Origin: an uncultured archaeon
GTDB taxonomy: Archaea > Asgardarchaeota > Thorarchaeia > Thorarchaeales > Thorarchaeaceae
DNA: 32,000 bases
Reading direction: 5' to 3'
Assembly: GCA_964648855.1 (NCBI GenBank)
Contig: CAZYLT010000007.1
Location: 60,001-92,000 of the forward strand
Shown piece by piece: positions 1,723 to 29,949 of this stretch. Numbering within the stretch: the first letter of the stretch is position 1; each line of letters begins with the position of its first letter. Both the position numbers and the translations under genes were made by a program. The notes under the pieces were generated by a model. It searched no databases, was not told where the DNA came from, and was given only the letters and a program-made list of their open reading frames with translations.

Positions 1723-1771
1723 GGCCTTGGTGGGTCACCGGCGCCGCAATCTTCAGAGGATGGTATAGAAA

Positions 1772-2452: not shown

Positions 2453-2458
2453 AGTATC

Positions 2459-3391: not shown

Positions 3392-3415
3392 TCAATAGAA
3401 ATGGAGGGTGAGTGA

Positions 3416-4084: not shown

Positions 4085-4132
4085 GTGATTGCCCATTTGA
4101 GCTCTCTATCATGACGAAATATCTAGGGCCGT

Positions 4133-6804: not shown

Positions 6805-6806
6805 AT

Positions 6807-7223: not shown

Positions 7224-7230
7224 AACCACA

Positions 7231-7261
7231 AGGGGGATTTTCCCCCTCCAATTTTCTTTTT
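7231..7261 (+). terminator. Hairpin plus T-tract terminator between convergent genes
   Basis: AGGGGGA-TTT-TCCCCCT (7231-7247) followed by CCAATTTTCTTTTT. Confidence 0.65.
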
Positions 7262-7598
7262 ATGACCCTCGGACACTAGACTCGAGAACGCCAGCCCATT
7301 TCGTAAGTAGCGCGACTGCGTTCAGAGTCTGCAGATAGAGCTTGGAGGCCGCGATTTGGTCACAGCTATCTAATTGTTCTAGTGCCCCATCAATAATCTC
7401 GGCAGCGTCAAGAATTCTGCGTCTTCCTTCATTTCTACGGTAATCTGAGAAAATCAAATAATCAGGCTCTTCTTTTTTCCAGGCTTTCTCAAAGAGATGC
7501 TCTTCTCGAATTGCAGTCTTCAATTCATACGAACTGATGAGCGAATTCTTCATTACTTGCAATGATTTTCTCAGAGCATCAGTTCTCAGATTCCGCAT
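7260..7598 (-). CDS. Hypothetical helical protein (about 112 aa)
   Basis: Fills the gap between convergent and divergent neighbours; ATG at 7598 preceded by GTGAGG SD; protein-like composition. Confidence 0.7.
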   Translation of the reverse strand: MRNLRTDALRKSLQVMKNSLISSYELKTAIREEHLFEKAWKKEEPDYLIFSDYRRNEGRRRILDAAEIIDGALEQLDSCDQIAASKLYLQTLNAVALLTKWAGVLESSVRGS

Positions 7599-7767
7599 TA
7601 TCCTCACATCGTTGCGCTGTTTCTGCAAAATTGGACAGCATACTCCCAAATAAGGTTAGAGGGCGACACTCTGCTTTTGTTTAGACCTATTATTTCGCTT
7701 ATCTTCTGCTATGACAATGCACTTGAGAACGCTTATTTAGAGGAAACCACTACTCGATGTCAGTTAA

Positions 7768-8568
7768 ATGGAGGAGAATAAATTGTCAGAGAATGAAGTC
7801 CTCTACAGTGTCGATGGTGCAATAGCCACAGTCACCATTAACCGACCCAAGAAATACAATGCCCTCAATACCTTTGTTGTGCAAGAATTGACAAAAGCCA
7901 TGAAAAAGGCGGAAGATGATGACACGGTCAGAGTAGTCATCCTTACTGGTACAGGAGAAAAAGCATTTGCCGCTGGAGCTGATATCAATGAATTTCGGGA
8001 TAAGGATTCGAAGACAGTACGACCCTTGGCTGAAGCAGGTCAGAATCTTTGCACCGAAATAGAATCCATGACAAAGCCTGTGATTGCTTGTGTGAATGGC
8101 TTCGCTTTGGGAGGCGGTTGTGAGATTGCCATGGCTTGCGACATCCGGTATGCTTCAACCAATGCTCGTTTTGGACAGCCCGAGATTAATCTCGGCATTA
8201 TCCCCGGGTTCGGTGGGACTGTGAGGTTACCGAGACTCGTAGGTCTTGGAAAGGCTAAAGAACTGGTGTTTAGTGGAGAGCAGATAATTGCTGAAGAGGC
8301 AAAACGTTTGGGTCTAGTAAATGAAGTATTTGAATCAGTAGACAAACTAAGAGAAGAAACAACTGATTTTGCCCAAGACCTGGCCGAGAAGCCTGGGGTG
8401 GCAATCAAGCTAGCTAAGAAGTCCTTGAATGCTGCATGGATTCTGCCTGTTGCTAAGAATCTTGAATTGGAAGTTGACCTCTTCACTGAAGTCTTCGATA
8501 CTGAAGACAAAGATGAAGGCGTGGATGCATTTCTATCGAAGCGTGAACCAGATTTTTCACACAAATAG
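7768..8568 (+). CDS. Enoyl-CoA hydratase/isomerase (crotonase family)
   Basis: INRPKKYNAL, FAAGADI, GFALGGGCE, FGQPEINLGIIPGFGGT; both catalytic Glu present. Confidence 0.95.
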   Translation: MEENKLSENEVLYSVDGAIATVTINRPKKYNALNTFVVQELTKAMKKAEDDDTVRVVILTGTGEKAFAAGADINEFRDKDSKTVRPLAEAGQNLCTEIESMTKPVIACVNGFALGGGCEIAMACDIRYASTNARFGQPEINLGIIPGFGGTVRLPRLVGLGKAKELVFSGEQIIAEEAKRLGLVNEVFESVDKLREETTDFAQDLAEKPGVAIKLAKKSLNAAWILPVAKNLELEVDLFTEVFDTEDKDEGVDAFLSKREPDFSHK

Positions 8569-10736: not shown

Positions 10737-12194
10737 ATGACAGACCGGGTCTTTGCAGTATTTGACATAGGTACAACGGGTGCACGTTCAGTGCTATTGA
10801 ATGAAGAAGGAAAGGAACTGAGCAAGGCTTACGAGGAATATCCCGTAAAGCCGCGAGATATTGGAACGCACGAGCAGCTATCTGAAACCTTTTGGAGGAC
10901 TGCATGCAACACAATGCAGAGGGCATTAACTGGCTACGATGCTGGGGCAGATGCTGTATTTGCAGTTATTGTCACAACAACCCGGGATTGCATCACTCCG
11001 GTGGATGAGAAGGGAGCCCCCCTCGCGCCTACAGTGACATGGGTTGATAACCGGTCAAGCAAGAGAGCCAAGGAGCTAGCGGAGGATATTGGACCGCGGA
11101 AAAGCGTAAACAAAATAATGTGGTTCATGGATGAGCGTCCAAAATTATACGAAACAGCTAACAAATTCATTCATCTTGACGCATATATCAACTATCGACT
11201 CTGTGAGAGGATGGTGAGTGAACCTGCGAATGCCCGTTTTGGCCCTGTTGATCATGACACCTTAGAATGGTCCGAAGAATTGCTTGAAATAACAGATATC
11301 GATAGAGATAAGCTAGTTGATATTGTTGAGCCCGGAACTACGCTAGGTCAAATAACTGATGGAGCATCGAAAGCGACGGGGCTTAGGTCAGGAACCACTG
11401 TCATAATGGGAAGTGGCGACCAGCAATGTTCCGCCCTGGGAACTGGAACAATCGAGACTGGAATTGTCAAGGCTACGACAGGTACTGGTACTTTCGTCAT
11501 AACCCATACCGATGAATGCCTCGAAGACCCTTATGTGATGTTTTCAAATCCAGCGGCGATTCCTGGGAAATGGATTCTGGAGGGAGTGACTCCTGGAACG
11601 GGCTTGGCATTCAAATGGTATCGCGACCAATACTGCCAGCAGGAAGCTCAAGTTGCTGCACAGTCAGAAGCAAACACCTACGAGATTATTGAAGCCTCAG
11701 CTTCGGAGGTGCCCGCCGGAAGCGACGGTCTCGTCATATTTCCATTCATGGCTTACAAGAAAGGAATATTCTACAACCTGGGATTCGAGCATACGAAAGC
11801 TCACGTAGCTAGAGCCATAATGGAGGCAAACGGGTACAGCATTCAAATGTATCTTGAGATGATGGAGGGAATGCTTGACTTAGAATTTGACCAGCTCCGA
11901 ATTGATGGTGGTGGTGCTAACTCCCCACTGTGGCGCCAAATCCAGGCTGATTGTACAAACAGAACTGTTGTTCTCCCACGGGTATCGGATTCGACTGCCG
12001 TTGGAGCAGCAATCCTGGGAGCAGTTGGAACCGGTGTCTTTGGCACATTTGAGGAAGCCGTGGACAATATGTATCATGTTGAAGAACGGAGAGTACCAAT
12101 TCCAGAAAATGTTGAAGTATACCAGCAGCAATATACTGTTTTCAACAAGCTGTTGATTGCTGAAATGGCTGCAATCCTCGAGGCTACAACCTAG
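10737..12194 (+). CDS. FGGY family kinase, glycerol-kinase-like
   Basis: FDIGTTGARS, TTRD, TWVDNR, GSGDQQ, KATTGTGTF, LRIDGGGA, WRQIQAD, AVGAAILG motifs. Confidence 0.92.
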   Translation: MTDRVFAVFDIGTTGARSVLLNEEGKELSKAYEEYPVKPRDIGTHEQLSETFWRTACNTMQRALTGYDAGADAVFAVIVTTTRDCITPVDEKGAPLAPTVTWVDNRSSKRAKELAEDIGPRKSVNKIMWFMDERPKLYETANKFIHLDAYINYRLCERMVSEPANARFGPVDHDTLEWSEELLEITDIDRDKLVDIVEPGTTLGQITDGASKATGLRSGTTVIMGSGDQQCSALGTGTIETGIVKATTGTGTFVITHTDECLEDPYVMFSNPAAIPGKWILEGVTPGTGLAFKWYRDQYCQQEAQVAAQSEANTYEIIEASASEVPAGSDGLVIFPFMAYKKGIFYNLGFEHTKAHVARAIMEANGYSIQMYLEMMEGMLDLEFDQLRIDGGGANSPLWRQIQADCTNRTVVLPRVSDSTAVGAAILGAVGTGVFGTFEEAVDNMYHVEERRVPIPENVEVYQQQYTVFNKLLIAEMAAILEATT

Positions 12195-12261
12195 TATATC
12201 TTATGTGAAAACAAGTGAACAGTTTATCTTGAGATATACGTGAGTTACATTCCACAGGCTG

Positions 12262-12504
12262 CTACTCTTCGCTTCGCTGTTCCCAGATTCTCCCGAAGAA
12301 CACCAAACCCAATACTAGCTCTGATCCGCTGAGATTATCCGCAAGCCACTCAATAGATTCACTAATTGTGTCTTCATAATCATAAGCTTTCTGAGCATTC
12401 TTTACCAGATTTTCAAATTTATGATCGGGAATTCCAAGTGCGTCAGTCAGTTTCTCGACATCATGGTCAATTATTGTTAGCGTGCCTAGGTCATAGTTTG
12501 GCAT
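12262..12504 (-). CDS. Small acidic hypothetical protein (80 aa)
   Basis: Clean ORF in the gap with GGGTGA SD upstream and a helical acidic sequence. Confidence 0.7.
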   Translation of the reverse strand: MPNYDLGTLTIIDHDVEKLTDALGIPDHKFENLVKNAQKAYDYEDTISESIEWLADNLSGSELVLGLVFFGRIWEQRSEE

Positions 12505-12752
12505 TCAAAGTTCACCCACAGAGTATTCTCCTAAGACTTATACGCTTGAGAATGATGCCCCTTTTTAATTGAATTTATGATAGGGGTTGCTCAACTGTCA
12601 TCCTTGCTCCAATTATATTGAAACGCACATAGTATTGCATATTCTTTATTCGACCGTTCCGAAACACTAGTATTATGAGTCTGGTTTCTCTGCTAAGATT
12701 AATACTGGGGTACATTCAGTCGTATCCTCTAATCTAAGGAGTCTGCTAGGAT

Positions 12753-14405
12753 TTGAGTGAATTTGATGTAATCGTCATTGGCGGAGGAAGTACGGGAACT
12801 GCAGTGGCGCGTGACTGTGCAATGAGAGGCTTTCAAACGCTGCTACTGGAACGTGGTGATATTGCTTCCGCTACAGTTGGTACCTGCGCAGGGATGATAT
12901 CATCCGGTCTCAAGTACATGGATGAACCCGAGATTGTCGATATATGTAGCGATGAGGTGGTTCACCTTAATAGAATAGCACGACACCTCATAATGAAAAA
13001 TCCCATTCTTACTCCAATGCTGAAGATGAGCGATCTTTCAACTGGAGGTAATTTCGCAGAAGAATACTCAAAGCGAGCAGAAAAACGAGATGTTCCTCCA
13101 GTCCTGTTTCTGACGCCCGAAGACTCTATGAAAATCGAACCGAAGCTAAATCCCCAGATTATCGCCAGCATGTATTTCGAGGAGTTTTTCATCGACCCAT
13201 TCCGGTTCTGTCTTCTACAGGCCATTGATGCGGCTCGAAACGGAGCAGAAATTCGAACATATTGTGAAGTGACAGATATACTGAGGGATGAAGATTCGGT
13301 AACTGGTGTTGAATTCTTTGATGGACTCGAAGGAAAGGTCAAAACCGCGAAGGCAAAAATAATAGTCAATGCTGCAGGTCCCTGGGTGCCCAGTATTGCC
13401 GGATTTGCCAATGCCAATGCGGAGATTCGTCCCAATAAGGGTGCACATGTTATCTTCGATAGACGAATCGTCAATGTTGGTATAATTGCTCGCGCAGTCG
13501 ATGGGCGGATGATCTATCTCTTCCCACACGAAAACACAACTCTGCTGGGAACTACTGCGTTGGATTCTTGGGAGGACCCAGACATCCTGGTTGCATCGCA
13601 GGATGAGATTGAATATCTGATGAAGAGCATGGAATGGGTTATACCCTCCATAAGAGAGGCTAGAATAATTAGGACCATGGAAGGGGTACGACCACTTGTT
13701 GCCGATTGGAAGAAGCCAGAGGGCGAAGTCACAAGAGGATATGAGATTATCAACCATGCTGAGGAGGGCGTAGAGGGTCTGATTAGTTTCACTGGCGGCA
13801 AGCTGGTGATGTGTCGACATATGGCTGAAGCCGCCACAGACATTGTCGCAGAAAAATTCGGGACTGCTGTTGAATGCAAAACACACCTTCAGCCCTTACC
13901 TGGAAACGAGGATGATATTGACATTCTGTCCTTGTCAAAGAAGTACAAGGTCTCTCAACACGCATTAGAAAGAATGAGGGCCAGAAGAGGTACCGAAATG
14001 CAGAATGTGTTGAACCTGCTGGATGAGAATCCATCATGGAGAACTACGATTTGCACATGCGAACCTGTCATTGAAGCAGAAGTAAGGTATGCGATTCAAG
14101 AGGAGTTTCCGCAGACTCTGGATGATTTACGTCGTCGATTGCGACTTGGCACAGGCCCTTGCCAAGCCACTTTTTGTACGTATAAAGCTGCAGCAATAAT
14201 GGCTGATGAACTAGACCTGTCTGGAACACAATTCCAACTCGAGATTCTGGATTATCTTGCAGAACGATGGAAAGGTAAGAGACCTCCTCTTCGGGATGTC
14301 AGCATCTCTCAAGAGGAAGTTCTGCAGGGCACTTATGCTTGCGTTGCGAACCTCGATCATGAAGAGATTGACTATAGAAAGAAACCTTGGGAGGAGGTGC
14401 GCTGA
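12753..14405 (+). CDS. glpA: Anaerobic glycerol-3-phosphate dehydrogenase subunit A-like flavoprotein
   Basis: IGGGSTG FAD motif, IDPFR, VNAAGPW, KGAH, LLGTT, GVRPL, GGKL, and a C-terminal BFD-like [2Fe-2S] motif CTCE...RLGTGPCQATFC. TTG start with AAGGAG SD. Confidence 0.88.
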   Translation: MSEFDVIVIGGGSTGTAVARDCAMRGFQTLLLERGDIASATVGTCAGMISSGLKYMDEPEIVDICSDEVVHLNRIARHLIMKNPILTPMLKMSDLSTGGNFAEEYSKRAEKRDVPPVLFLTPEDSMKIEPKLNPQIIASMYFEEFFIDPFRFCLLQAIDAARNGAEIRTYCEVTDILRDEDSVTGVEFFDGLEGKVKTAKAKIIVNAAGPWVPSIAGFANANAEIRPNKGAHVIFDRRIVNVGIIARAVDGRMIYLFPHENTTLLGTTALDSWEDPDILVASQDEIEYLMKSMEWVIPSIREARIIRTMEGVRPLVADWKKPEGEVTRGYEIINHAEEGVEGLISFTGGKLVMCRHMAEAATDIVAEKFGTAVECKTHLQPLPGNEDDIDILSLSKKYKVSQHALERMRARRGTEMQNVLNLLDENPSWRTTICTCEPVIEAEVRYAIQEEFPQTLDDLRRRLRLGTGPCQATFCTYKAAAIMADELDLSGTQFQLEILDYLAERWKGKRPPLRDVSISQEEVLQGTYACVANLDHEEIDYRKKPWEEVR

Positions 14406-15764
14406 TTGAGAATGGACTCTGATGTTCTCATCATTGGGGGTGGAATGGCGGGCCTGATTGCTGGAACGAAGGCAGCTCAAGAAGGCGCCTCAGTGACAAT
14501 CGTTAGAAAAGGAGAGGGCGCCACATCGGATTCATCGGGCGCGATTGATATTCTTGGCTACTTGCCCGGTGCTACAATTCCATTTCTGTCTTCATTCGAA
14601 GCATTGAATGCTGTAACTCGATTGATGCCTTTCCACCCGTATACAGTCCTTAGTAGACATAGAGGTGGTCCTGCATCATCCGAACATCTAATTGAGAATA
14701 TGAGCCAATCTGTTGGATTCCTGAAGAATCTACTTGAAGCTTCTGAGATTCGATTAGTCGGTGGGTTGGAAGAGAACTTAGCGCTTCTGACGGTACTCGG
14801 AACAACAAAACCCTCCGCCTTGGTTCAAGACACAATGGTATCTGACCACCACACGGATGACACTTCTGTCATTCTCTTTGCAGGCATCAAAGGTCTTCAG
14901 GATTTCAATTCCCGTGCTGCAGCGCGAACATACTTAAGCCATCAAATGGCGAGCGAAAGCGGCACACAGAGGGCTGCACAGATTGACCTTGATATTTCCC
15001 CCTTTGGCAAACCGTACAATATTGCAATGATGGATGCAGCAAGATACATGGAAACAGATGAAGGTCTTGAGGTTCTCAAAGAAGCACTCTCAACAGAGGT
15101 AGGTAAAATCGGAGCAACGCATGTTGCTATAGCTCCAATATTGGGTATTCACAAGACTCGAGAGATACGAGATGCTCTTGAGAAAGAAACAGGGGCATCC
15201 GTGTTCGAACTGTTATCATTTCCACCTTCAGTACCAGGCTATAGACTGTCTCGTTCTCTTGAAATTGCCTTCAGGAAGGCTGGTGGAACATTGTTGGTTG
15301 GGCATGAGGCTTTTGATTATGAGAGAAATGGTGTCATTTCATCAGTAACTGCCAGAAGTCCTCGAAGAACTCTAGAATTGACTGCAAAGACATTCATCTT
15401 GGCAACTGGAAAATTCATAGGTGGTGGAATTCACGGGGGTGAACGTGGATTACACGAGAGTCTGTTTGGACTCCCAGTAGTAGATGCAGACCGGAATCTG
15501 TTAGTCAAGGAAAAACCTGTGCATTTGACAAATATCAGTGCTATCTCTCCAGAAGGACATACCCTCTTTGCTGCGGGAGTCCCATATGACCATATGCTCC
15601 GCCCCCTAGATTCCAGCGGTATCATATTTGCAGAGAATCTCTTTTGCGCTGGTGGAGTATTATCGGGACATAATTATCCTCTAGAAAAGAGCGGTCTGGG
15701 AGTGGCTCTCCTATCAGGTCATGCAGCTGGTAGAATTGCCGCAGAATATGTGGAGGAGGCATGA
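14406..15764 (+). CDS. glpB: Anaerobic glycerol-3-phosphate dehydrogenase subunit B-like protein
   Basis: IGGGMAG, SSGAIDILG, GTTKPS, FPPSVPGYRL, LATGKFIGGG, EKSGLGVAL motifs. Alternative ATG at 14412. Confidence 0.9.
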   Translation: MRMDSDVLIIGGGMAGLIAGTKAAQEGASVTIVRKGEGATSDSSGAIDILGYLPGATIPFLSSFEALNAVTRLMPFHPYTVLSRHRGGPASSEHLIENMSQSVGFLKNLLEASEIRLVGGLEENLALLTVLGTTKPSALVQDTMVSDHHTDDTSVILFAGIKGLQDFNSRAAARTYLSHQMASESGTQRAAQIDLDISPFGKPYNIAMMDAARYMETDEGLEVLKEALSTEVGKIGATHVAIAPILGIHKTREIRDALEKETGASVFELLSFPPSVPGYRLSRSLEIAFRKAGGTLLVGHEAFDYERNGVISSVTARSPRRTLELTAKTFILATGKFIGGGIHGGERGLHESLFGLPVVDADRNLLVKEKPVHLTNISAISPEGHTLFAAGVPYDHMLRPLDSSGIIFAENLFCAGGVLSGHNYPLEKSGLGVALLSGHAAGRIAAEYVEEA

Positions 15765-17008
15765 AAATGAGTGAAGAAGAATCATATGAATTCGTGAAGA
15801 ACACGTTGAAAGAAGAGGGTATACAGCCCTATGAGCCCTCCGAATTGGAGACTATCCATAGTATCGAACAGTGCATCAACTGTGGCTTGTGCATCAATCA
15901 TTGCCCTGTTGTTTCAGCGGTGGGAGTTGATCGCTTTGCTGGTCCGCGTAGCATAGCCGTAGAATTCAGCAGGACTCCTCCTGAATTTTGGTCTACTGGT
16001 GACCATGTGTATCTTTGTACCGGTTGTGGGACTTGTCGTGAGGTCTGCCCAAACAATGTGGATATTCCGGAAATTGTCAATGTCATTCGCGCACGTATTT
16101 TCACTCAGAGGCCGGATTTGGTTCCGAAGGCGTTGCATGCTCAGAATGCAATAATTCACGAGTACAACCTAGCGTTTGAACCCTGGGAAGATATTGAGGA
16201 TAAGAACGCAAGTCGGGATATGCGATTGGAGCGTCTAAATCTCCCTTATTACAAAGAACGCATCAAACAAGATGCCAAGGTTCTATTCTATCCCGGTTGT
16301 CAAGCGGAAGAGAGAGCACAAGAGGTACGGGAGGCTGGAAAGATCATTTTGGAGCATTTTGGTATCGATTATACTCTCTTGGATGAATTGAGCTGTTGTG
16401 GAATGCCTTCAAGGCTCATTGGCGATCATGAGAAGGCGGAAGACCTTGCCCGATCATTGAAGGAAAAGATTGACGCATTGGGCGTGGAGGCGATTGTGAC
16501 GACCTGTGCTGGTTGTACGTCGAATCTTACGAGTGTCGCGCACGTCTATGGATGGCAACTGCCGACCTATCATATGCTTGAGTATTTGGTAGAAGAAATC
16601 GGAATAGACCGGATTTCTGAGGCGGTAAATCAGCAGGAAAAACCAGAAGAGACTGTTGTCACGGTACACGACCCATGTCACCTCATACGGCACACATCTA
16701 GGAGAGTTATGGACTACGCACTGGACATTCTCAAAATAATGAATGGTGTTGAGGTTGACGAAGAGAGCGCGCATGATTCATGCTGTGGAGGTGGCGGCTT
16801 AGTAGCCAGACACTCGCCTGACGTGTCCAAGAAAGTCGTGGACGCGAACGTCTTTGCAATCTCAAAGACTGAGGGAAAGAGAGTTGTCACTCCTTGCCCC
16901 TTGTGTACTGCTCAGATTGAGGATAATCTATTCAGAAGTGGAATTGACATTGATGTCGAAGACCTCAGTGTATTCATCGCCAGAAGGCTTTCTCGAAAGG
17001 AGGACTAA
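15761..17008 (+). CDS. glpC: GlpC-like Fe-S protein (2x[4Fe-4S] plus two CCG domains)
   Basis: CINCGLCINHCP, CTGCGTCREVCP, YPGC..SCCG..CAGC, HDPC..CCGGGG..CPLC; ATGA overlap with glpB. Confidence 0.85.
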   Translation: MKMSEEESYEFVKNTLKEEGIQPYEPSELETIHSIEQCINCGLCINHCPVVSAVGVDRFAGPRSIAVEFSRTPPEFWSTGDHVYLCTGCGTCREVCPNNVDIPEIVNVIRARIFTQRPDLVPKALHAQNAIIHEYNLAFEPWEDIEDKNASRDMRLERLNLPYYKERIKQDAKVLFYPGCQAEERAQEVREAGKIILEHFGIDYTLLDELSCCGMPSRLIGDHEKAEDLARSLKEKIDALGVEAIVTTCAGCTSNLTSVAHVYGWQLPTYHMLEYLVEEIGIDRISEAVNQQEKPEETVVTVHDPCHLIRHTSRRVMDYALDILKIMNGVEVDEESAHDSCCGGGGLVARHSPDVSKKVVDANVFAISKTEGKRVVTPCPLCTAQIEDNLFRSGIDIDVEDLSVFIARRLSRKED

Positions 17009-17014
17009 GCTACC

Positions 17015-18442
17015 ATGCTCGATAGAAAGAAGAGAAACAAGCTCAGTGATTCGTTGGAAGAAGTTGTCGGTTCTGAACATGTCACCAAACAAGAAACAGA
17101 CGGGATTCTCAATGCCCATGACGCTTTTCCATTAAGCGCTGCCAAAATTAGAGCAGGGGAAAGGCTTCCCATTGCGGATGTTATCGTATTTCCTAAATCT
17201 GCTGATGAAGTATCAGAGATTCTTAGGATTTGTAATCGAATGATGATTCCTGTCATTCCTGTTGGCGGAGGGGCAGGAAGCTGTGGAGGGACTCTACCGA
17301 TTTATGGTGGCGTACAAGTTGATATGAAACGAATGAACAAGATTCATGGGATTGACCATGAGTCAATGCTCGTTAGAGCAGAGGCTGGGGTTGTGGGTAT
17401 TGACTTGGAGGAATATGTGAACAAGGCAGGATACATAACTGGACACACACCTACATCACTCCGCGCATCAAATGTTGGTGGCTTCATTGGCACGCGCTCA
17501 GGAGGTTCGATGTCTTCTCTTTATGGTAAGATTGAGGACCTCTGTCTTGGACTCCAGGTAGTCTTGCCTGATGGCAGTATCGTGGATTTAAAGGCTGTTC
17601 CAAGACATTCGGTGGGTCCCGATTTGAAACAGTTGTTCATTGGCTCAGAAGGCACTTTGGGAATAATCACTGAAGCCACTCTACGCCTCTTTCCTATGCC
17701 TGAAGAACGTAGATTCAGAAGCATATCGTTTCCAGATGTTCACACTGGTCTTCAAACCATTCGGCAAATTTTCCGGAACGGAATCAAGCCATCGGTTGTA
17801 CGTCTTTATGACCCAGAAGATACAGCATTGTCAATCAGTGTGCATTTTGATGTCCCCGAAGGTAACTGTATGCTATTACTGGCATTTGATGGGACGCGCG
17901 AGCAGGTAAACGTTGATGAAATGATGTGCGCCAATATTTGTCTGGCAAATGGAGGAACCGACTATGGTGCAGCTCCTGCGAGACGATGGTGGCAGCATCG
18001 ATATGATATGTACTATCCTACGAAATTCACGACAGCTGGATATGCGATTGGTGATACCATAGACATTGTTGCCACTTATGATAAACTGGAGAACGTCTAT
18101 CATGCCATGAAAGAAGCGATGGAGGCGCACGATGCCATTGTTATGTCACATTTCTCGCATATGTATCAGAATGGTGGTTCAATCTATATGATTTTCTTCA
18201 GTTCTCAACCGGATGCCGAGTCTGGCTGGGAAACTTATCAGAAAATATGGGGGGACGCAATTTCCGCTTGCTTGAAAGAGGGAGGTACTATGAGTCACCA
18301 GCATGGGGTAGGTCTTGTGAGGAGCACGTATACAGAGGATGAGCTTGGTTCAGCATTCCAAACGTTGAAGGCGATAAAACAAGTGATTGATCCGAACGGA
18401 ATCATGAATCCTGGAAAGCTTGGTCTGGGAGGCGAGCAGTGA
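17015..18442 (+). CDS. FAD-binding oxidoreductase, alkyl-dihydroxyacetone-phosphate synthase (AGPS)-like (VAO/PCMH family)
   Basis: PVGGGAGSCGG, GHTPTSLRASNVGG..TRSGG..S.LYGKIEDL, PRHSVGPD..LFIGSEGTLGIITEA, RLYD, SHQHGVG, DPNGIMNPGKL. Confidence 0.82.
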   Translation: MLDRKKRNKLSDSLEEVVGSEHVTKQETDGILNAHDAFPLSAAKIRAGERLPIADVIVFPKSADEVSEILRICNRMMIPVIPVGGGAGSCGGTLPIYGGVQVDMKRMNKIHGIDHESMLVRAEAGVVGIDLEEYVNKAGYITGHTPTSLRASNVGGFIGTRSGGSMSSLYGKIEDLCLGLQVVLPDGSIVDLKAVPRHSVGPDLKQLFIGSEGTLGIITEATLRLFPMPEERRFRSISFPDVHTGLQTIRQIFRNGIKPSVVRLYDPEDTALSISVHFDVPEGNCMLLLAFDGTREQVNVDEMMCANICLANGGTDYGAAPARRWWQHRYDMYYPTKFTTAGYAIGDTIDIVATYDKLENVYHAMKEAMEAHDAIVMSHFSHMYQNGGSIYMIFFSSQPDAESGWETYQKIWGDAISACLKEGGTMSHQHGVGLVRSTYTEDELGSAFQTLKAIKQVIDPNGIMNPGKLGLGGEQ

Positions 18443-19560
18443 TGGACCCGGAGGAAATCGCAGAGCAAGTACGGCTGTGCGCTGGTTGTCCAAAGATGTG
18501 CCGTCATAGGTGTCCTACCTTCTTTGCATGGCGTTCCGACTCACCTACACCCCATGGAAGGGCGCTTCTTGTGCACTACGAGAATACAGAAACGAGAGAT
18601 ATAGATGGACGAGGAGCTGAAGTTCTCTATCAGTGTCTGCAATGTAGCCAATGTCTCACGTGGTGTCTTCCCGGTGTTGACATAGCGAAGATAGTTGAAA
18701 CCATCAGAAGGTCGCTAGTTTCTAGGAACCTTCAACCCGAGGGGTTGAACTCATTGCGGGATTCAATAGATCGTCATCATAATCCGTTCTCAGAACCTCA
18801 TGACGAGAGGAACAAATGGTTGGGACTTACGCCGCATGGAACAACGGACATCATCTATTTCGCCGGCTGCACATCATCATATAGAGAGAAGGAGATTGCA
18901 GAATCAACCATCTCTCTTTTGCAGCACTTGGGACACTCGGTTCAAGTTGCCCCAGACGAATGGTGTTGCGGTTCGCCTCTGCTAAGAACCGGGTTCCAAG
19001 AAACCTCAAAACAAATAGCGGAACACAATGCTGAATTGCTGAATTCACTGGACGCTGACGAGATTCTCGTGACTTGTCCTGGTTGCTTTAAGACCCTCAC
19101 AAAGGACTATTCCGATTTTGGCATCGAACTGAATAAACCGGTCATTCACTTGAGTGAATTCTTGGAGCGTCAAGAGGAGTCGCTTCCGAGAATGGACTTT
19201 GAAGACGAGATAACCTATCATGACCCTTGTCATCTGGGTCGTCATTCAGAGATATATGACGCGCCCCGGAATGTTATAGAAACTGTTACTGGTAAGAAAA
19301 TTGTAGAAATGGGTCAATCCCGAGAAGATGCCATGTGCTGTGGCAATGGGGCGGGATTGAGGACCCTGTACCCCGATTATGCTCATAAGATTGGAAGCGA
19401 ACGTATTCACCAAGCCAAAGATACGGGTGCTGGAATATTAGTTAGCACCTGCCCATTCTGTAAGAATATGTTGAATGCAGAGGCTGATGGAGATTTGGAG
19501 GTCTTGGATTTATCAGAGCTTGTTGAAATCGCCCGTAGCCGTGAACTTAAGAGTGAGTAA
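18439..19560 (+). CDS. CCG-domain Fe-S oxidoreductase (GlcF/GlpC/HdrD-like)
   Basis: CAGCPKMCRHRCP, CLQCSQCLTWC, FAGC..WCCG..CPGC, YHDPCHLGR..CCG..CPFC; overlaps the upstream stop codon. Confidence 0.9.
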   Translation: MMDPEEIAEQVRLCAGCPKMCRHRCPTFFAWRSDSPTPHGRALLVHYENTETRDIDGRGAEVLYQCLQCSQCLTWCLPGVDIAKIVETIRRSLVSRNLQPEGLNSLRDSIDRHHNPFSEPHDERNKWLGLTPHGTTDIIYFAGCTSSYREKEIAESTISLLQHLGHSVQVAPDEWCCGSPLLRTGFQETSKQIAEHNAELLNSLDADEILVTCPGCFKTLTKDYSDFGIELNKPVIHLSEFLERQEESLPRMDFEDEITYHDPCHLGRHSEIYDAPRNVIETVTGKKIVEMGQSREDAMCCGNGAGLRTLYPDYAHKIGSERIHQAKDTGAGILVSTCPFCKNMLNAEADGDLEVLDLSELVEIARSRELKSE

Positions 19561-19586
19561 ACTGAAAGAATCCTGCAAAGTGGTAT

Positions 19587-20711
19587 ATGGATATGAATCC
19601 TGAAGCAATTCTCAAACTGAAAGTTCGGCTTCTTACGCAGGGCGCCACTTTGCCGGAGGGATATGGTAGCGTCCGCAAGGGGGGTGCTGGGCCTGTTGGT
19701 GCCAGATATTTCATATTACCAAATGGAAAACCCTGTGGCATTCCAATACGAAAAGGAGAAACAGCAGAGCAATTTGGTTCTGCTTCTCTGGAACCTCTGA
19801 ATGAAGATGGATTGTGGTTGTATGATTCAGAAATTGAGCTACAGGAAGTGGGGAAACCCTCATTCTATGACCTTGAAGTGAATGAAGGAATTCCATATTG
19901 GAAAATTGCATTACTACATGGCAGCTCATGCTTAGCAACGACCGTGTATCAAGAATGCCGCTATTGGTCCCAAGGAACACAATGCAAATTTTGCACAATC
20001 CCCACATCACTCCAGATGGAATCTACGATCTTGGAAAAAGAACCAACACAGGTTGCAGAAGTTGTTATTGCAGGAGAGAAAGAGGGTCTGATTGAACATG
20101 TCCTCTTAACGACAGGGACCCCCGAGGGCTCCGATGCTGGTGGAAAGCGAATGGCTGCCATCTCTAGAGAAATTCGGAAAGTTTCGAATCTTCCGATTGC
20201 TGTTCAGCTAGAGCCTCCACATGATATTTCAATACTCGATGAATTATCCGATGCAGGGGTCAACTCAGTTGGCATACATCTTGAAACCGCGGATGATGAT
20301 ATTCGCAAGAGGGTTTGTCCTGGAAAGTATGACTATGCTAGTGTAGAAGAATATGAACGAATTTGGGAGAAGGCAGTAGAAATATTTGGCAGAGGTGAAG
20401 TCAGTACTTTCCTTCTTCATGGACTAGGAGAACGAACGGACGAAACGCTGAGGTATATTCGCCATTTGGCCGAGATAGGTGTGACCACGATAGTTGCACC
20501 AATACGACCTGCTCCCGGGAGTCAGATGCCTAGTTTTATCCCCTCTTACATTGGAGAACTTGGCGCTTCAATTGCATTCTATAAAATCACCGGTAAGATT
20601 CTTCTGGAAAACAATCTGAATCCAAACAGAGTAAGTGCCGGTTGTTCCAAGTGTGGGGCTTGTACACCTATTCAAGAAGCCTATGACTGGGCTGAGTCAG
20701 TCATGCTATAG
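19587..20711 (+). CDS. Radical SAM protein, MSMEG_0568/NitD-like
   Basis: RKGGAGP, KIALLHG..LATTV, CRYWSQGTQCKFC (CX8CX2C), LLTTGTP, GIHLE and C-terminal AGCSKCGAC. Confidence 0.85.
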   Translation: MDMNPEAILKLKVRLLTQGATLPEGYGSVRKGGAGPVGARYFILPNGKPCGIPIRKGETAEQFGSASLEPLNEDGLWLYDSEIELQEVGKPSFYDLEVNEGIPYWKIALLHGSSCLATTVYQECRYWSQGTQCKFCTIPTSLQMESTILEKEPTQVAEVVIAGEKEGLIEHVLLTTGTPEGSDAGGKRMAAISREIRKVSNLPIAVQLEPPHDISILDELSDAGVNSVGIHLETADDDIRKRVCPGKYDYASVEEYERIWEKAVEIFGRGEVSTFLLHGLGERTDETLRYIRHLAEIGVTTIVAPIRPAPGSQMPSFIPSYIGELGASIAFYKITGKILLENNLNPNRVSAGCSKCGACTPIQEAYDWAESVML

Positions 20712-20774
20712 AATTACTCAAGGCAATTATCCAGAGATTTATGAGTATCATCTCTAAATTCTTATGTGAATCTA

Positions 20775-21260
20775 ATGTCTGAATTTCCTATTGAAAAAAT
20801 CCGCATTGTCGAATTTGATGAAGATGCTGCAGAGGAGATTTCAGACCTCATGAAAGAAGTCTGGTCCAGAGCAAAGGAGTACCCCAAAAGCTGGCGAAAG
20901 AAAAGAATGTATAGTCCCGAACAAATCAAAAAGGACATGCAACAGGGCTACCACTATTGTGGAGCAAGACTCAAGGGCGAGATTGTCGGAGTGTATAAAG
21001 CGAAGATTACAGAGAAAGGTCTGTTTGGTGAACATCAGACTGTTCATCCACGATGTCGCGGGACTGGATTGGCTTCAGCCATGTATGAGCAATTTGCAGA
21101 ATATGCTAGAGAGCATGGATGTGAACGCAACTACTGCAATATTCTTGTTGGGCAAGATGTCGGAGAGTGGCTCATGGAGAAATATGGTTTCGAACGCTGG
21201 GGAGAACCCTATGAGCAAGAAGAGGGCATGCTTGTTCAACTGTATGAGCGAAAACTCTGA
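20775..21260 (+). CDS. GNAT family N-acetyltransferase
   Basis: TVHPRCRGTGLA motif A and MEKYGF motif B. Confidence 0.85.
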   Translation: MSEFPIEKIRIVEFDEDAAEEISDLMKEVWSRAKEYPKSWRKKRMYSPEQIKKDMQQGYHYCGARLKGEIVGVYKAKITEKGLFGEHQTVHPRCRGTGLASAMYEQFAEYAREHGCERNYCNILVGQDVGEWLMEKYGFERWGEPYEQEEGMLVQLYERKL

Positions 21261-21357
21261 CGGGAATCCGACCTCATACACGTTACCAATCTCATCGGAA
21301 AAACTATTAGTATAGGTCCCGCGCGTTGGGTTCTCTAGAGAGAATCGAGGTATCCTC

Positions 21358-23022
21358 ATGGAAGTCTATCCAATTCTTGTTGATGGTGATGAAATCGATA
21401 CAGGTCAATATGCAGTTTTTCCTGACATGGATAGAATTGTTCAGGATCCGGGGTTAGCAATTGCGCTTCAAATGAGAGAGGCAACAGCAGTTCAGCGTCT
21501 TCTTTTCAAACGGGCACCTCGGCTCATTCCTGAAAGCAACGCACAAATGAGATACTTGCGTGACTACAGACGACATCACGGAGTTCCGGATTATTCTAAT
21601 GATGAACTAGATGACGTGGTCTATGCAAAGGTGTCCATAGCTAGAGAATCAGATATCAATGCCGCTCTTGAAGCAGGTGTACGCGACCACAATGCCCTCT
21701 TCAATCCGCTTAGAGAGGAGGGCATGGGTGTTACGCTCGATGAGCGCGTTGATGTTCTATACGAGGCTGGTCTGGCTGTAAAGGACCGATATCAAGACGT
21801 CTGTGATGTTTCAGTTAAAGAGGGGGTTCCTATTGGAACGTTCAATTGGACATGGGATATGTTCACAGAGTACCTGGAACGGGAAACCTTCGAGATCTGG
21901 GGTCAGAGTCTTGATGTCATTGAAAAACCCGGGCGGGACGGAGGTCGGAATCTCCGTTTTCGTGAACCTTATGGCATAGCTTGCCTTTTCACGCCATACA
22001 ATTCCCCGCTTGCTTTGGGAATTCTTAGTATAACCTCATCCATACTCGCAGGAAATGCCACCATTCTGAAACCTCCGAGCAAGGTTCCACTAAGCACAAT
22101 CCTACTTGGTCGGATATTCACGGAGAAGTTCCTGGAAATGGATCTTCCCAAATCCATGATCCAAGTACTAACGGGCGGTGGCAAGAAGCTCATGAATAGA
22201 TTCATGAAGGACCCGCGAGTTGGGACGATTGTGTGGTATGGAGATAGCGACACAGGCATTGAACTTTGGTCCAAGGCGGTTTCGCGAAGAATTCAGATGG
22301 CACCCGAACTAGCTGGGAGTGACGCCTCTCTGGTTTGGGGGCGAGATGCTGATTTGGATTTTGCTGCAAAGATGATTGTTAAGGGAAGGTATCTCGGTAG
22401 TGGGCAAGCCTGTATGGCGGTCAAGCGATTATTTGTTCAGGATGTCCTCCATGACGATTTGGTTAATCTTATTGTGGAAGAAGCCGAGAAGCTAAAGGTT
22501 GGGCGTCCATCGGATCCTGAAGTTACCTTGCCACCAATTGGAGTGACTGCTCTGTACCTCTTGATTGACCAGATGAAAGACGCGGTTGCAAAGGGAGCCA
22601 AAATAGAAACCGGAGGATATCGTATGGACTATCTTGGCAATCGTGACCCTGCAGGTCTATTCTATAAGCCCACCGTATTAACTAATATCTCTCAGGACAT
22701 GCGCATGGTTAGAGAAGAAGTCTTTGCCCCTGCGTTGCCAGTGATGAGTGTTTCAAGCGTAGATGAAGCTATAGCAATTGCGAACTCTTCTCGTTTTGGC
22801 CTTCGGGCTTCGATTTTTACAGATAATCCAAAGATAAGAACGAAATGGTCCAAAGAAATCAAAGCTGCTGGGGTGAGTATTGGGCAAGACCACCTCTATT
22901 TTGATCCTCACATGCCCCATCTCGGAGGCTACAAGGATTCTGGTATTATCGGAGCAAAGTATTTCCAAGAGATGCTAACACGTATGAAATATATTCATAC
23001 TGGTCCAGATATTGAAATTTGA
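21358..23022 (+). CDS. Aldehyde dehydrogenase family protein (divergent, with N-terminal insertion)
   Basis: REPYG..PYNSP, LAGNATILKP, ELAGSDA, GQACMA (catalytic Cys), REEVFAP, FGLRASIFT, GGYKDSG. Confidence 0.9.
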   Translation: MEVYPILVDGDEIDTGQYAVFPDMDRIVQDPGLAIALQMREATAVQRLLFKRAPRLIPESNAQMRYLRDYRRHHGVPDYSNDELDDVVYAKVSIARESDINAALEAGVRDHNALFNPLREEGMGVTLDERVDVLYEAGLAVKDRYQDVCDVSVKEGVPIGTFNWTWDMFTEYLERETFEIWGQSLDVIEKPGRDGGRNLRFREPYGIACLFTPYNSPLALGILSITSSILAGNATILKPPSKVPLSTILLGRIFTEKFLEMDLPKSMIQVLTGGGKKLMNRFMKDPRVGTIVWYGDSDTGIELWSKAVSRRIQMAPELAGSDASLVWGRDADLDFAAKMIVKGRYLGSGQACMAVKRLFVQDVLHDDLVNLIVEEAEKLKVGRPSDPEVTLPPIGVTALYLLIDQMKDAVAKGAKIETGGYRMDYLGNRDPAGLFYKPTVLTNISQDMRMVREEVFAPALPVMSVSSVDEAIAIANSSRFGLRASIFTDNPKIRTKWSKEIKAAGVSIGQDHLYFDPHMPHLGGYKDSGIIGAKYFQEMLTRMKYIHTGPDIEI

Positions 23023-24370
23023 CAGTAAGGAGCGAATCACGCTGTCCTTGAATCAAGATGAAATTACTCGATTATCGAGGGCTCGAGCAGTTGACATCCT
23101 AGGAAGACATACAGAATCCAAAACATCATTACGTCACACACTTAGATTGTATCTCCAAAAGTCTCGTGATGACCCTGCCATCAAGAGTCAGGTTCAGTAT
23201 TTGGCTATCAATGCTATCCGATACAAAAACACAATTGACTATCTCCTGGTACGAGGCGATCCTGCCCTTTCATTCAGTAAATTGGATGTCGAGGACCAAA
23301 ACCGCTTGAGATTAGCACTGTTTGAGAGTCGATGGTTAAACGAACCTCTTATGACACTAGGGTCGCACTATCTAAAATGGAGAACGAAACTTCGTTCTGT
23401 TTTGCAGACAGCAGCGGAAATCGATCTAAATCAATCGGTCGAATCACTGTCAAGGATTGAGAAACTTAGCGTCCTCTATTCACATCCGACATTCATCATT
23501 GAAACCCTGTTGGAATACATGAATAAAGACGAAGTAATCGAACTAATGAAGGAGAACCAGACTCCGCCATTGACTTATGTTAGGCCAAACAAACTATCTG
23601 AACCCGGCCTTGAACCAATTTCTCGTTTAAGCGCCAAAGGCATTTCCCTAGTACCAGATGATATTCAAGATGTCTACATTCTTAGAGAGGGTCTCGCCGA
23701 TTTGGTTCAAACTAAGGAATTCAAAGAGGGTGCTGTTCTGATACACGATAAAGCAAGCATAATAGCTGTTGATGTTTTTGACCCTCAATCTGAACAAATC
23801 GTTTGGGATGCATGTGCCGCACCTGGGATGAAGACGCAGTACATATGTGAGAAAATGCTGAACAAAGGGAAGCTAATTGCCAGCGACATTAATCGCAATC
23901 GTCTCAAAGGTAGCATGAAACGACTGAGGTCATGGGGTTGTTCTTCTGCTCACTGGCTGCTAGCAGATGCAATAGAATGCCCAATAATTGGCGCAGACAA
24001 GATTCTGATTGATGCACCTTGTACTTCAACAGGAATGCTTCAAAGCCACCCGTCTTATAAGTGGAGGTTGAACAAGGACTGGTTGTTTTCGCTGATGACA
24101 ATCCAGAGCAAATTACTTGAGTCGGTAATCAGTTCCTACTCGGCTTACCCAGAAACCGAAATTGTGTATTCAACTTGTTCAATACTACCTCATGAAGGCG
24201 AGAGTCAAATCGACTCGGCTCTAGAGAGATTTGATATTGAGTTACGGGAGATAGATGGTATTTCTGGGCAAGGCTATTCTGGATTCAACTGCTCTAAGAA
24301 AGTCAAAAGATTTTTCCCCCATACCCATAGAACGAATGGGTTCTTCTTGGCGAAATTTAGGATTATCTAG
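23012..24370 (+). CDS. RsmB/NOP2 family RNA m5C methyltransferase with NusB-like N-terminal domain
   Basis: YSHP, DACAAPGMKT, DAPCTSTG (motif IV Cys), YSTCS (motif VI Cys), RFFPH..GFFLAK. Confidence 0.92.
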   Translation: MKFDSKERITLSLNQDEITRLSRARAVDILGRHTESKTSLRHTLRLYLQKSRDDPAIKSQVQYLAINAIRYKNTIDYLLVRGDPALSFSKLDVEDQNRLRLALFESRWLNEPLMTLGSHYLKWRTKLRSVLQTAAEIDLNQSVESLSRIEKLSVLYSHPTFIIETLLEYMNKDEVIELMKENQTPPLTYVRPNKLSEPGLEPISRLSAKGISLVPDDIQDVYILREGLADLVQTKEFKEGAVLIHDKASIIAVDVFDPQSEQIVWDACAAPGMKTQYICEKMLNKGKLIASDINRNRLKGSMKRLRSWGCSSAHWLLADAIECPIIGADKILIDAPCTSTGMLQSHPSYKWRLNKDWLFSLMTIQSKLLESVISSYSAYPETEIVYSTCSILPHEGESQIDSALERFDIELREIDGISGQGYSGFNCSKKVKRFFPHTHRTNGFFLAKFRII

Positions 24371-25218
24371 CTTGCTTTCGCTGCAACAGATTCCATGACC
24401 CGTCGAGCAAACTCTCGATCATCTTTGTAACTAAATGGAATTTGCAGGAATTGCTTTCTCGCTCTGACAATGGATTGTTTATCATCTTGAATTGCAATGC
24501 GGAAGATGAGTTTTGTCCACTCAAAGCAAGGGTGGTATTGGAATGCTTCTCGGTTTTTCTCAGCGATGTCTTTGAGATAGGAAAGCCCCTCTTTTGGTTT
24601 TCCTAACATAAGATCTGCAAGTGCACCCATGCAGGCAAATACAACTGCACTCTTGGCTATTCCCGAATCAATGAATTTCTGTGTGCTCTCCTTGTACTCT
24701 TTTGCCTTCTTTTTATAGAGGGCATCTCCGTGGCTAATTATGATACCCTTGCTTTCATCCTTGTCTGGTCTCTTTAGGGCAACCCCGCCTAGTATACTAG
24801 CCTTCAGTTCAGCCTGCATGTCAGCCAATGCACTAGTTTCCTCACTAGTTTTCGCAGCCTCTAATATTTCATTTCCTGAGGTTTTAAGTCGCTTCTTTAC
24901 AGCATCCGAAACCGAGTTAGCACCCTCATTAATGTCCGTTTCGTAGATGTTCCTGGCCTTTGTGAAGAATGAATATGCTTTGCCAATCAAATTGAAAGAG
25001 ATTGCCAGATCAATCGCCTTTGTTAAGGAATTAACTGCATTGTCATATTCACCCAATGTCAAAAAATGTCCAGCTGCTTCTGATAGCCAAGGAAATGCAT
25101 CTGCGCTTTCAGTTTCAATCCCTTCATTTCCGTGCTTAAGGGCTTTGTATGCGTCAACGCATATTATAGAGAGATCCTCATCTCGACACTTTTCAGCCAC
25201 TTCTTTAACTGAAAGCAT
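24367..25218 (-). CDS. Helical-repeat (TPR/SNAP-like) hypothetical protein
   Basis: About 283 aa and all-helical, with the TPR-like unit EAAGHFLTLGEYDNAVNSLTKAIDL. Start placed at ATG 25218, although the ORF extends to 25335. Confidence 0.7.
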   Translation of the reverse strand: MLSVKEVAEKCRDEDLSIICVDAYKALKHGNEGIETESADAFPWLSEAAGHFLTLGEYDNAVNSLTKAIDLAISFNLIGKAYSFFTKARNIYETDINEGANSVSDAVKKRLKTSGNEILEAAKTSEETSALADMQAELKASILGGVALKRPDKDESKGIIISHGDALYKKKAKEYKESTQKFIDSGIAKSAVVFACMGALADLMLGKPKEGLSYLKDIAEKNREAFQYHPCFEWTKLIFRIAIQDDKQSIVRARKQFLQIPFSYKDDREFARRVMESVAAKAS

Positions 25219-25428
25219 CTGCCCACGGATCTTGCAGCCGTACCCCTTGGCTGTTCTATCGAGATTATCACAGCGGTCGCTTGTACCTTTTTCCGAAATT
25301 TTATGCCACCTCGTTAATGCATGGCAAAGATGCAAATCATACTCAGTACTTATCCTAAAAAACCAATTCTTGTTGTATCGACATGCTTAAGGGTATACTA
25401 AATTCGAGGGGTAACCCGGGATTTAGGA

Positions 25429-29892: not shown

Positions 29893-29949
29893 TATCTGAA
29901 AATCAGATTATCAAAATCGTGATGTAGGCTCTCCATCAAATCATTTGGT

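Follow-up and report, generated by a model that had tools for sequence, protein, structure and literature searches.

An AGPS-type flavoprotein and its Fe-S partner recur with an FGGY kinase and glycerol-3-phosphate dehydrogenases in Asgard archaea

Alkyldihydroxyacetonephosphate synthase (AGPS) carries out a redox-neutral exchange of acyl and alkyl groups on dihydroxyacetone phosphate (DHAP) through a flavin N5 adduct. When no alcohol is available the enzyme hydrolyses acyl-DHAP to DHAP, and it also exchanges the alcohols of alkyl-DHAP. Here we analyze a flavoprotein related to AGPS that is encoded, together with a kinase, GlpABC and an Fe-S protein, in a 32,000-nucleotide stretch of DNA from an uncultured archaeon. 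This stretch, the window (C7:60001-92000), belongs to a genome of 3.1 Mb and 94.6% completeness, and the nearest homologues of its proteins carry Thorarchaeota names. A bacterial operon with a related set of genes is already described at the level of regulation: in PA3026-PA3023 of Pseudomonas aeruginosa, the gene for an FAD-linked oxidoreductase that was given the AGPS step accompanies genes for a homologue of GlpD, a kinase of the FGGY family and a lipid kinase of the YegS type. Deletion of this operon gave no phenotype on glycerol or on Biolog plates (PMC8151288). What appears to be new, judged from the sequence, is an AGPS-type active site that belongs to glycerol-phosphate metabolism and is built into a two-subunit redox architecture like that of GlcD/GlcF.

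The six genes concerned lie on the forward strand, and their domain content was checked with Pfam and NCBIfam. An FGGY kinase, part of the conserved core (10737-12194; Pfam FGGY_N/FGGY_C), is followed by GlpA (12753-14405; DAO, DAO_C and Fer2_BFD, a BFD-like [2Fe-2S] domain), GlpB (14406-15764, gap 0 to GlpA; TIGR03378), a GlpC-like Fe-S subunit (15761-17008, gap -4; the 4Fe-4S dicluster domain Fer4_8 and two CCG domains in Pfam), an AGPS-type ("class A") flavoprotein of the VAO family, which is an FAD-linked oxidase of 475 amino acids (17015-18442, gap +6), and CCG2, an HdrD/GlcF-like Fe-S protein with Pfam CCG domains (18439-19560, gap -4) whose gene starts within that of the flavoprotein. 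The kinase, the flavoprotein and the CCG subunit form a conserved core that is repeatedly found beside one of three non-orthologous glycerol-3-phosphate (G3P) dehydrogenases. We give a probability of roughly 55% to the reading that flavoprotein and CCG2 form a two-subunit flavin/Fe-S dehydrogenase of AGPS type, which receives a DHAP-type phosphate ester from the kinase and GlpABC.

The initial annotation of this locus described the flavoprotein as AGPS-like, and this description is upheld by sequence, profile, fold and key residues. AGPS came first in a sequence search of the PDB (Dictyostelium 2uuu, 216 bits; guinea-pig 4bby, 207 bits), with mitochondrial D-lactate dehydrogenase (D-LDH) at 160 bits, and a profile of the flavoprotein's prokaryotic relatives matched AGPS at 388 bits versus 285 for D-LDH. 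Both domains of the fold are present, the VAO-type FAD-binding domain (PF01565, 134 bits) and the FAD-oxidase C-terminal cap (PF02913, 148 bits). When an AlphaFold2 model of the protein (predicted local distance difference test, pLDDT, 89.6) was searched with Foldseek, AGPS stood on top (5ae3/4bby; template-modelling scores TMq 0.89 and TMt 0.75-0.79) and the mitochondrial D-LDH, mLDHD, next (TMt 0.88). Arg263, in the motif RLYD, aligns with the active-site Arg of AGPS (R352 in Dictyostelium, R419 in guinea pig) and Tyr391 with the catalytic Tyr (Y508 and Y578, respectively), and both residues are invariant in alignment A3. R352, Y508 and R447 of the Dictyostelium enzyme were reported to be important for catalysis (PMC3509576); the counterpart of R447 is a Thr in the flavoprotein (YPTKF), in a column that varies across the clade. 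The HHH loop of AGPS (guinea-pig His615-617) reads SHQHG (His428-Gln429-His430), with the first and third His kept. This form is shared by 120/120 of the closest, Thorarchaeota-family homologues and by Asgard family f12; the remaining Asgard families, like most class A proteins of bacteria, have SHHHG. The flavoprotein lacks an internal insertion of AGPS as well as its N-terminal domain of about 125-175 residues. The alignment begins near residue 127 of the Dictyostelium protein and residue 178 of the guinea-pig protein, with only about 40 flavoprotein residues preceding it. In AGPS, an enzyme-specific extra domain and a gating helix control access to the fatty-chain channel (PMC3509576). As modelled, the flavoprotein matches a plain D-LDH-type enzyme in size.

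This equality in size with D-LDH is one of three observations that would fit an ordinary 2-hydroxy-acid dehydrogenase of the D-lactate/glycolate type, a GlcD/GlcF pair that is just a neighbour of glpABC. The others are that GlcD is the best NCBIfam model for the protein (TIGR00387, 235 bits against a cut-off of 568) and that the genome holds seven further FAD-oxidase/CCG pairs. Motifs and synteny largely exclude this explanation, to which we assign a very small probability. Our alignment of 98 homologues, drawn from 18 loci of Asgard archaea and 80 bacterial/archaeal ones, split into two motif classes with no intermediates. Class A proteins carry R-L-[Y/S]-D, SHxYxxGxxxY and [H/D/E]-H-H-G, the last being H-Q-H-G in Thorarchaeota and f12. 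Class B proteins carry the motifs of GlcD and D-LDH, including the metal ligands: GEHG was found in 25/25 class B loci, and ExxD and GHxGDGNxH in nearly all. The flavoprotein has SHMYQNGGSIY, SHQHG and RLYD where GlcD and D-LDH have GHxGDGNxH, GEHG and ExxD, so that the metal-ligand motifs are replaced, and AGPS outscores D-LDH in sequence, profile and fold alike. In a tree rooted on eight class B sequences and taking in no eukaryotic AGPS, class A forms a single clade with 100% support in the Shimodaira-Hasegawa-like approximate likelihood ratio test (SH-aLRT), and its loop motif is present in 142 of the best 150 representative clusters at 50% identity. The flavoprotein does not group with GlcD or the D-lactate dehydrogenases, from which both class A motifs and clade separate it; its sequence makes it a member of a large prokaryotic clade with the AGPS active-site signature. 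The 643-amino-acid protein P0229 was considered as a eukaryotic AGPS and rejected, as it matched 2uuu at only 190 bits.

The two classes also differ in their neighbours. Within 5 kb of 53 bacterial class A genes we counted a GlpD-like gene at 34 loci, an FGGY kinase at 12, a DAGK-type lipid kinase at 20 and a CCG gene at 7, although many of these loci are related and the counts are not independent. A G3P dehydrogenase or kinase neighbour was present at 39/53 class A loci versus 0/25 class B loci, 7 of the latter having a CCG gene, and this adjacency in class A only is a further point against a 2-hydroxy-acid dehydrogenase. The bacterial association spans Actinomycetota, Myxococcota, Binatota, Bacteroidota, Pseudomonadota and one Bacillota genome, in which a flavoprotein-Fer4-CCG fusion is followed by genes for a DAO-BFD protein, Pyr_redox_2 and DUF1667 (L145 9697-14113). 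Presumably the class A clade also includes the glpD1-Rv2251-Rv2252 arrangement of M. tuberculosis. Class A proteins fused to a HAD phosphatase are found next to FGGY and GlpD genes, and fusions to a PfkB kinase in a sugar operon. Class A proteins of about 900-990 amino acids (P0121-P0130 and some 40 more representatives) contain a second FAD_binding_4 domain, a tandem form reminiscent of a GlcD-GlcE fusion.

To place the locus among Asgard archaea, 301 genomes were surveyed and 18 loci were then taken from ten families other than the Thorarchaeota family (f1). The flavoprotein is present in 163/301 genomes. Within Thorarchaeota the whole region is syntenic, housekeeping flanks included (L001), and gene order there is therefore uninformative on function. 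In the other families, the CCG gene adjoins the flavoprotein gene in 18/18 loci and a kinase orthologue (36-44% identity) adjoins this pair in 13/18; in f12 the kinase orthologue lies 8-14 kb off on the same contig. Kinase and flavoprotein also run parallel in presence by family, each being found in 66/76 genomes of f1, 0/28 of f5 and 4/5 of f7. GlpABC stands beside the core in f1, f7, f13, f15 and f19. It is replaced in f2 and f20 (L132 4664-7860, L138 4517-7891) by the DAO-BFD, Pyr_redox_2 and DUF1667 set, which we take to be a Thermococcus-type G3P dehydrogenase. No transporter, isomerase or aldolase is kept with the Asgard module. Of the larger gene set first proposed as one system, the kinase, GlpABC, flavoprotein and CCG genes do recur together in distant lineages, beyond chance, and the remaining genes do not. 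The tie between the flavoprotein, a kinase and a G3P-dehydrogenase-type enzyme holds throughout Asgard archaea and in six or more phyla of bacteria.

The constancy of the CCG gene directs attention to its product. CCG2 contains N-terminal CX2CX3CX3C and CX2CX2CX3C motifs and two intact CCG motifs, all with invariant cysteines, and natural flavoprotein-Fer4-CCG fusions exist (P0158/P0282). A predicted complex of the flavoprotein with CCG2 scored 0.93, the best of three controls scoring 0.00. A mark of 0.93 was reached by 58/80 solved complexes and 2/110 mismatched pairs, and such a score may reflect memory if a similar complex has already been solved. At least 99% of contacts agreed between runs, and the pLDDT of CCG2 was at least 91. 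The predicted interface lays CCG2 residues 9-62, including the Fe-S cysteines Cys14-Cys21, on the FAD domain. The prediction thus supports binding of the two proteins, short of demonstrating it, and an electron path from flavin to Fe-S would be the simplest reading of the predicted complex and the natural fusions. Pairing of this kind appears to be the organism's standard wiring of FAD-oxidase flavoproteins: all eight paralogues in the genome have an adjoining CCG gene (8/8), the seven other pairs lying at C2:181971, C9:79228, C3:116591, C26:8990, C14:28623, C1:224561 and C8:47473. Additionally, an ETF gene was found within one bacterial class A operon.

In the reading we prefer, the kinase would phosphorylate a small glycerol-type polyol and GlpABC, going by its family, would oxidize the G3P-type product to a DHAP-type ketone. 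GlpABC is architecturally complete in one operon (DAO/BFD, FAD_binding_2 and Fer4+CCG subunits). Its GlpB passes the equivalog cut-off (TIGR03378, 193.2 bits against 174.15), its GlpC-like subunit scores 133 bits against a cut-off of 278 (NF008369) and has TfrB as best match, and its GlpA is the sole GlpA/GlpD-type gene found in the genome. The flavoprotein would then bind the DHAP-type moiety by the residues it shares with AGPS (Arg263, Tyr391 and His428/His430) and act at the carbon adjoining the keto group. Partner, fusions and predicted complex suggest that it exchanges electrons with the N-terminal [4Fe-4S] domain of CCG2, and the outcome would be a net oxidation or reduction, unlike the redox-neutral acyl/alkyl exchange of AGPS. 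Four features make us favor a two-subunit dehydrogenase over an alkyl transferase: the CCG partner is obligatory, fused forms exist, a complex is predicted, and the N-terminal domain of AGPS is missing. A small soluble substrate is favored by the FGGY (sugar) kinase, by bacterial operons with IolB-like and aldolase genes, by the PfkB and HAD fusions and by a D-LDH-sized fold lacking the N-terminal domain. The constant company of a kinase and a G3P dehydrogenase points to an unrecognized step in glycerol-phosphate/DHAP or glycerolipid-backbone metabolism.

Several observations weigh against a two-subunit dehydrogenase acting on a small DHAP-type ester. The CCG partner could just keep the flavin oxidized in an anoxic cell; aerobic class A proteins are mostly partnerless, which is compatible with a non-redox enzyme; and the conserved Tyr, Arg and His could equally serve an AGPS-like exchange or cleavage at C1-O. 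GlpA lies under its equivalog cut-off (TIGR03377, 417 bits against 552.8). It has MISSGLKY instead of xxHxGxRY (His to Ser, Arg to Lys) and GGKLVMCR instead of GGKLTTYR, at the presumed G3P-site motifs. Actinomycetota pair their class A gene with the DAGK-type lipid kinase (the 20/53 bacterial loci above; NF008882, 361 bits against a cut-off of 302), and in P. aeruginosa GliR (PA3027) activates PA3026-PA3023 jointly with phospholipase C (PMC8151288). Together, the kinase coupling and this co-regulation point to lipid-derived substrates in bacteria. Finally, we found no biochemical characterization in the literature for prokaryotic class A members outside the AGPS of Myxococcus, for which there is genetic evidence as cited in a preprint.

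The substitutions in GlpA had been read, with those in the kinase, as independent active-site changes suited to a substituted glycerol. For GlpA this argument is weak. The Ser/Lys variant, in which the Lys keeps the charge of the Arg it replaces, is a trait of a lineage, common to Asgard families f1, f7, f13 and f19 and absent from f15. None of the bacterial GlpD-like partners of class A genes has it, all showing the canonical HGGLRY/GGKLTTYR. An adaptation of the G3P dehydrogenase to substituted glycerols was therefore rejected as a general rule.

A substituted glycerol is central to the pathway that the initial annotation proposed. In a refined form of it, an alkylglycerol would be phosphorylated by the kinase to alkyl-G3P and oxidized by GlpABC to 1-O-alkyl-DHAP, whose C1-O bond the flavoprotein would break independently of O2. 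Water could displace the substituent as in AGPS chemistry, or a dehydrogenation could yield a hemiacetal while CCG2 carries the electrons away. The order of kinase, G3P-dehydrogenase-type and AGPS-type enzymes is indeed the one needed for a 1-substituted DHAP. The Arg, the Tyr and two loop His of AGPS are kept while the metal triad of D-LDH is absent, Thorarchaeota GlpA is changed at two G3P-site motifs, and hydrolysis of acyl-DHAP and alcohol exchange on alkyl-DHAP are part of the known repertoire of AGPS. In the bacteria Actinomycetota and Pseudomonas, DAGK_cat lipid kinases take the place of the FGGY kinase or accompany it, and the co-regulation of the P. aeruginosa operon with phospholipase C fits the same idea (PMC8151288). 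Nevertheless, we consider ether or ester processing unlikely. The AGPS N-terminal domain for the fatty-chain channel is absent, the Fe-S partner is obligatory, and Dictyostelium Arg447 is a Thr here. To our knowledge, no FGGY kinase acts on lipids. Three unrelated types of G3P dehydrogenase would all have to accept a bulky 1-substituent, and in the GlpD-like partners of bacteria the substrate motifs are canonical. The nearest relatives in bacteria belong to operons for soluble sugar phosphates, the module conserves no gene for a lipase, an alcohol dehydrogenase or beta-oxidation, and archaeal diether lipids have no free 2-OH. The broader proposition, that the AGPS-type flavoprotein and its Fe-S partner anaerobically break, or in reverse make, the C1-O bond of a 1-O-substituted DHAP derived from alkylglycerols, other glyceryl ethers or glycosides, strikes us as doubtful to the same degree.

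Run in reverse, the pathway had been suggested to make ether lipids. In the 94.6%-complete genome we found neither a PlsC/GNPAT-type acyltransferase (PF01553, with a positive control in 10 genomes) nor a PlsY-type acyltransferase (PF02660), which speaks against ether-lipid synthesis via acyl-DHAP and makes the biosynthetic direction unlikely here. A search for the FAR "Sterile" domain (PF03015) gave nothing, but its control was silent too, and the result is uninformative.

Two GDPD phosphodiesterases are encoded in the genome and could supply glycerol phosphates. With them, both stereoisomers released from glycerophosphodiesters would be usable if GlpABC acted on sn-G3P and the AGPS-type:CCG pair oxidized sn-glycerol-1-phosphate (G1P), the archaeal lipid backbone, to DHAP or D-glyceraldehyde-3-phosphate. 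The persistent link to three types of G3P dehydrogenase, an active-site type that binds the DHAP moiety in AGPS, and an Fe-S partner fitting a dehydrogenase are all in keeping with such a second-enantiomer enzyme. We nonetheless rate it as quite improbable: a likely NAD(P)-dependent G1P dehydrogenase in the genome (Fe-ADH_2 family, 337-amino-acid frame) could already interconvert G1P and DHAP, and the dedicated non-GlpK kinase and the relatives in sugar operons with a class II aldolase would go unexplained.

The kinase had been called glycerol-kinase-like, and membership in the FGGY family stands; it is not a GlpK orthologue. NCBIfam models for LsrK (242.6 bits), XylB (225.8) and GntK (217) all scored above GlpK, every one of them under its cut-off, and the GlpK model TIGR01311 gave 169.2 bits against a cut-off of 590. 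The best PDB match was LsrK (5ya0, 181 bits), with GlpK at 135 bits, and the GlpK motif NQRET is replaced by TTRDC. In a published phylogeny most Loki- and Thorarchaeota "glpK" genes group with bacterial carbohydrate kinases (PMC6737245), in agreement with this placement. A second, GlpK-like FGGY kinase (383 bits) is encoded elsewhere in the genome (C1:388120-390980). It converges on a LarA-type gene of the lactate racemase family, with a P-type ATPase also beside it, and this context is uninformative.

Sugar metabolism also surrounds the closest bacterial relatives of the Thorarchaeota group, which are 38-39% identical and group with it at 95% SH-aLRT. Their operons (L010-L012, from Thermoguttaceae, Clostridia and an unclassified bacterium) encode an IolB/KduI-like isomerase, a XylB-like FGGY kinase, the flavoprotein with a loop of the form N[D/E]HHG, a CCG protein and a class II aldolase, and look like an undescribed sugar-phosphate pathway. 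By analogy with EryA/EryB of Brucella, the archaeal kinase might likewise make the phosphate of a C4-C5 polyol such as erythritol, GlpA might act like EryB, and the AGPS-type enzyme might oxidize or isomerize the carbon alpha to the keto group. A kinase nearer to XylB and LsrK than to GlpK, the second, GlpK-like kinase, a GlpA under its equivalog cut-off and class A relatives beside sugar ABC transporters, SDR and Fe-ADH genes, aldolases and isomerases would all suit such a pathway. Still, GlpABC is the sole G3P-dehydrogenase-type enzyme found and the genome has GDPD genes, so that it probably must serve G3P, and the Asgard module conserves no transporter, isomerase or aldolase. We therefore see little likelihood in an erythritol-type pathway and continue to prefer a glycerol-type polyol and a DHAP-type ester as substrates of the module.

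Several genes adjoining the module had been assigned roles in the same system. The order and spacing given in the initial annotation were reproduced exactly by the open reading frame (ORF) list, except that a GNAT acetyltransferase gene (20766-21260, +; Pfam Acetyltransf_1) between the radical SAM and aldehyde dehydrogenase (ALDH) genes had been missed. The radical SAM gene (19587-20711, +; TIGR04043) follows CCG2 after 26 bp, the ALDH gene lies at 21358-23022 (+; Pfam Aldedh, 279 bits), and thiolase, DUF35 and crotonase genes lie at 5638-8568. None of their homologues, nor those of the GNAT gene, occurs within 9 kb of the flavoprotein gene in the 18 loci of other Asgard families, so that the proposed linkage is confined to the Thorarchaeota family. 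Radical SAM orthologues were found in 93/151 Asgard genomes, and outside f1 they lie hundreds of kb off or on other contigs. In genome G038, for example, the coordinates of the two genes are 678 kb versus 1373 kb (0.68 vs 1.37 Mb). On these grounds of synteny, the radical SAM, GNAT, ALDH, thiolase and crotonase genes were rejected as members of the system. Tight packing is no proof of common function here, since the 3' end of the ALDH gene overlaps by 11 bp with rsmB, which encodes the housekeeping rRNA methyltransferase RsmB (23012-24370).

The radical SAM protein scores just under the cut-off of its model (TIGR04043, MSMEG_0568/NitD family; 289.3 bits against 303.7). A radical SAM gene followed by a GNAT gene is the order of the bacterial Nit1C cluster; the GNAT gene had no match to the Nit1C-cluster GNAT family at E<=0.001, and no nitrilase is present in the window. 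ALDH has an N-terminal extension of about 85 amino acids, and its catalytic Cys (GSGQAC) and Glu (PELAG) are present. Its best NCBIfam model is the methanogen-type lactaldehyde dehydrogenase (241 bits against a cut-off of 650).

Other features of the window were noted in passing. An ORF of 80 amino acids (12262-12504, -) runs antisense in the 558-bp gap between the kinase gene and glpA. It has no Pfam match, and a counterpart with 61% identity occurs at the equivalent position of a related, Thorarchaeota-like contig (L001 5282-5518). Positions 1-5380 hold ECF-type ABC/CbiQ transporter genes, followed by Asp/Glu racemase, DUF1177 and AroM genes, with an M20 peptidase gene convergent. Downstream, ORFs of 322 (24367-25335, -), 239 (29173-29892, +) and 158 amino acids (29945-30421, +) had no Pfam match at E<=0.001.

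The flavoprotein belongs to a large, well-defined AGPS-type clade with members in over half of the Asgard genomes sampled. JGI labels such genes AGPS, as does KEGG, going by the pathway figure in PMC8151288. Solving the reaction would mend the routine mis-annotation of these genes as alkyldihydroxyacetonephosphate synthase in archaeal genomes, and it would inform claims that Asgard archaea have ether or "mixed" lipids. According to a preprint from 2025, no plasmalogen pathway is found in Archaea and the phylogenetic signal of AGPS is insufficient. The answer could also reveal the function of the ancestor of the eukaryotic ether-lipid enzyme. Were cleavage at C1-O to prove correct, Asgard archaea and many bacteria would share an anaerobic recycling of ether-lipid backbones, based on chemistry that eukaryotes use for ether-lipid synthesis. 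The module is also found in cultured bacteria and is hence open to direct testing.

Compared with known systems, the flavoprotein shares with AGPS (EC 2.5.1.26; 2uuu, 4bby) the VAO-type FAD_binding_4 and FAD-oxidase_C fold, the Arg, the Tyr and two loop His. AGPS has 584-658 amino acids, whereas the flavoprotein has 475, together with an obligatory CCG partner. Its neighbors resemble E. coli-type GlpABC in having complete GlpA, GlpB and GlpC domain sets and a GlpB over the cut-off, and differ in that Thorarchaeota GlpA and GlpC fall under theirs and the GlpA motifs are altered. PA3026-PA3023 has the same triad of flavoprotein, GlpD and kinase that is seen beside bacterial class A genes, PA3026 itself being a candidate member of class A; it is an aerobic form that uses a dehydrogenase of GlpD type, lacks a CCG partner, has an additional lipid kinase and is regulated together with phospholipase C. 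Finally, glycolate dehydrogenase (GlcDEF) and those D-lactate dehydrogenases that have a GlcF/HdrD-like CCG subunit likewise combine a VAO-type flavoprotein with a 4Fe-4S/CCG protein. Tandem or double flavoproteins and fusions are known in class A too, and the predicted docking similarly sets the Fe-S domain onto the FAD domain. The archaeal pair differs from these enzymes in that their substrate and metal motifs are missing and in that its neighbors are a kinase and a G3P dehydrogenase rather than lactate or glycolate genes.

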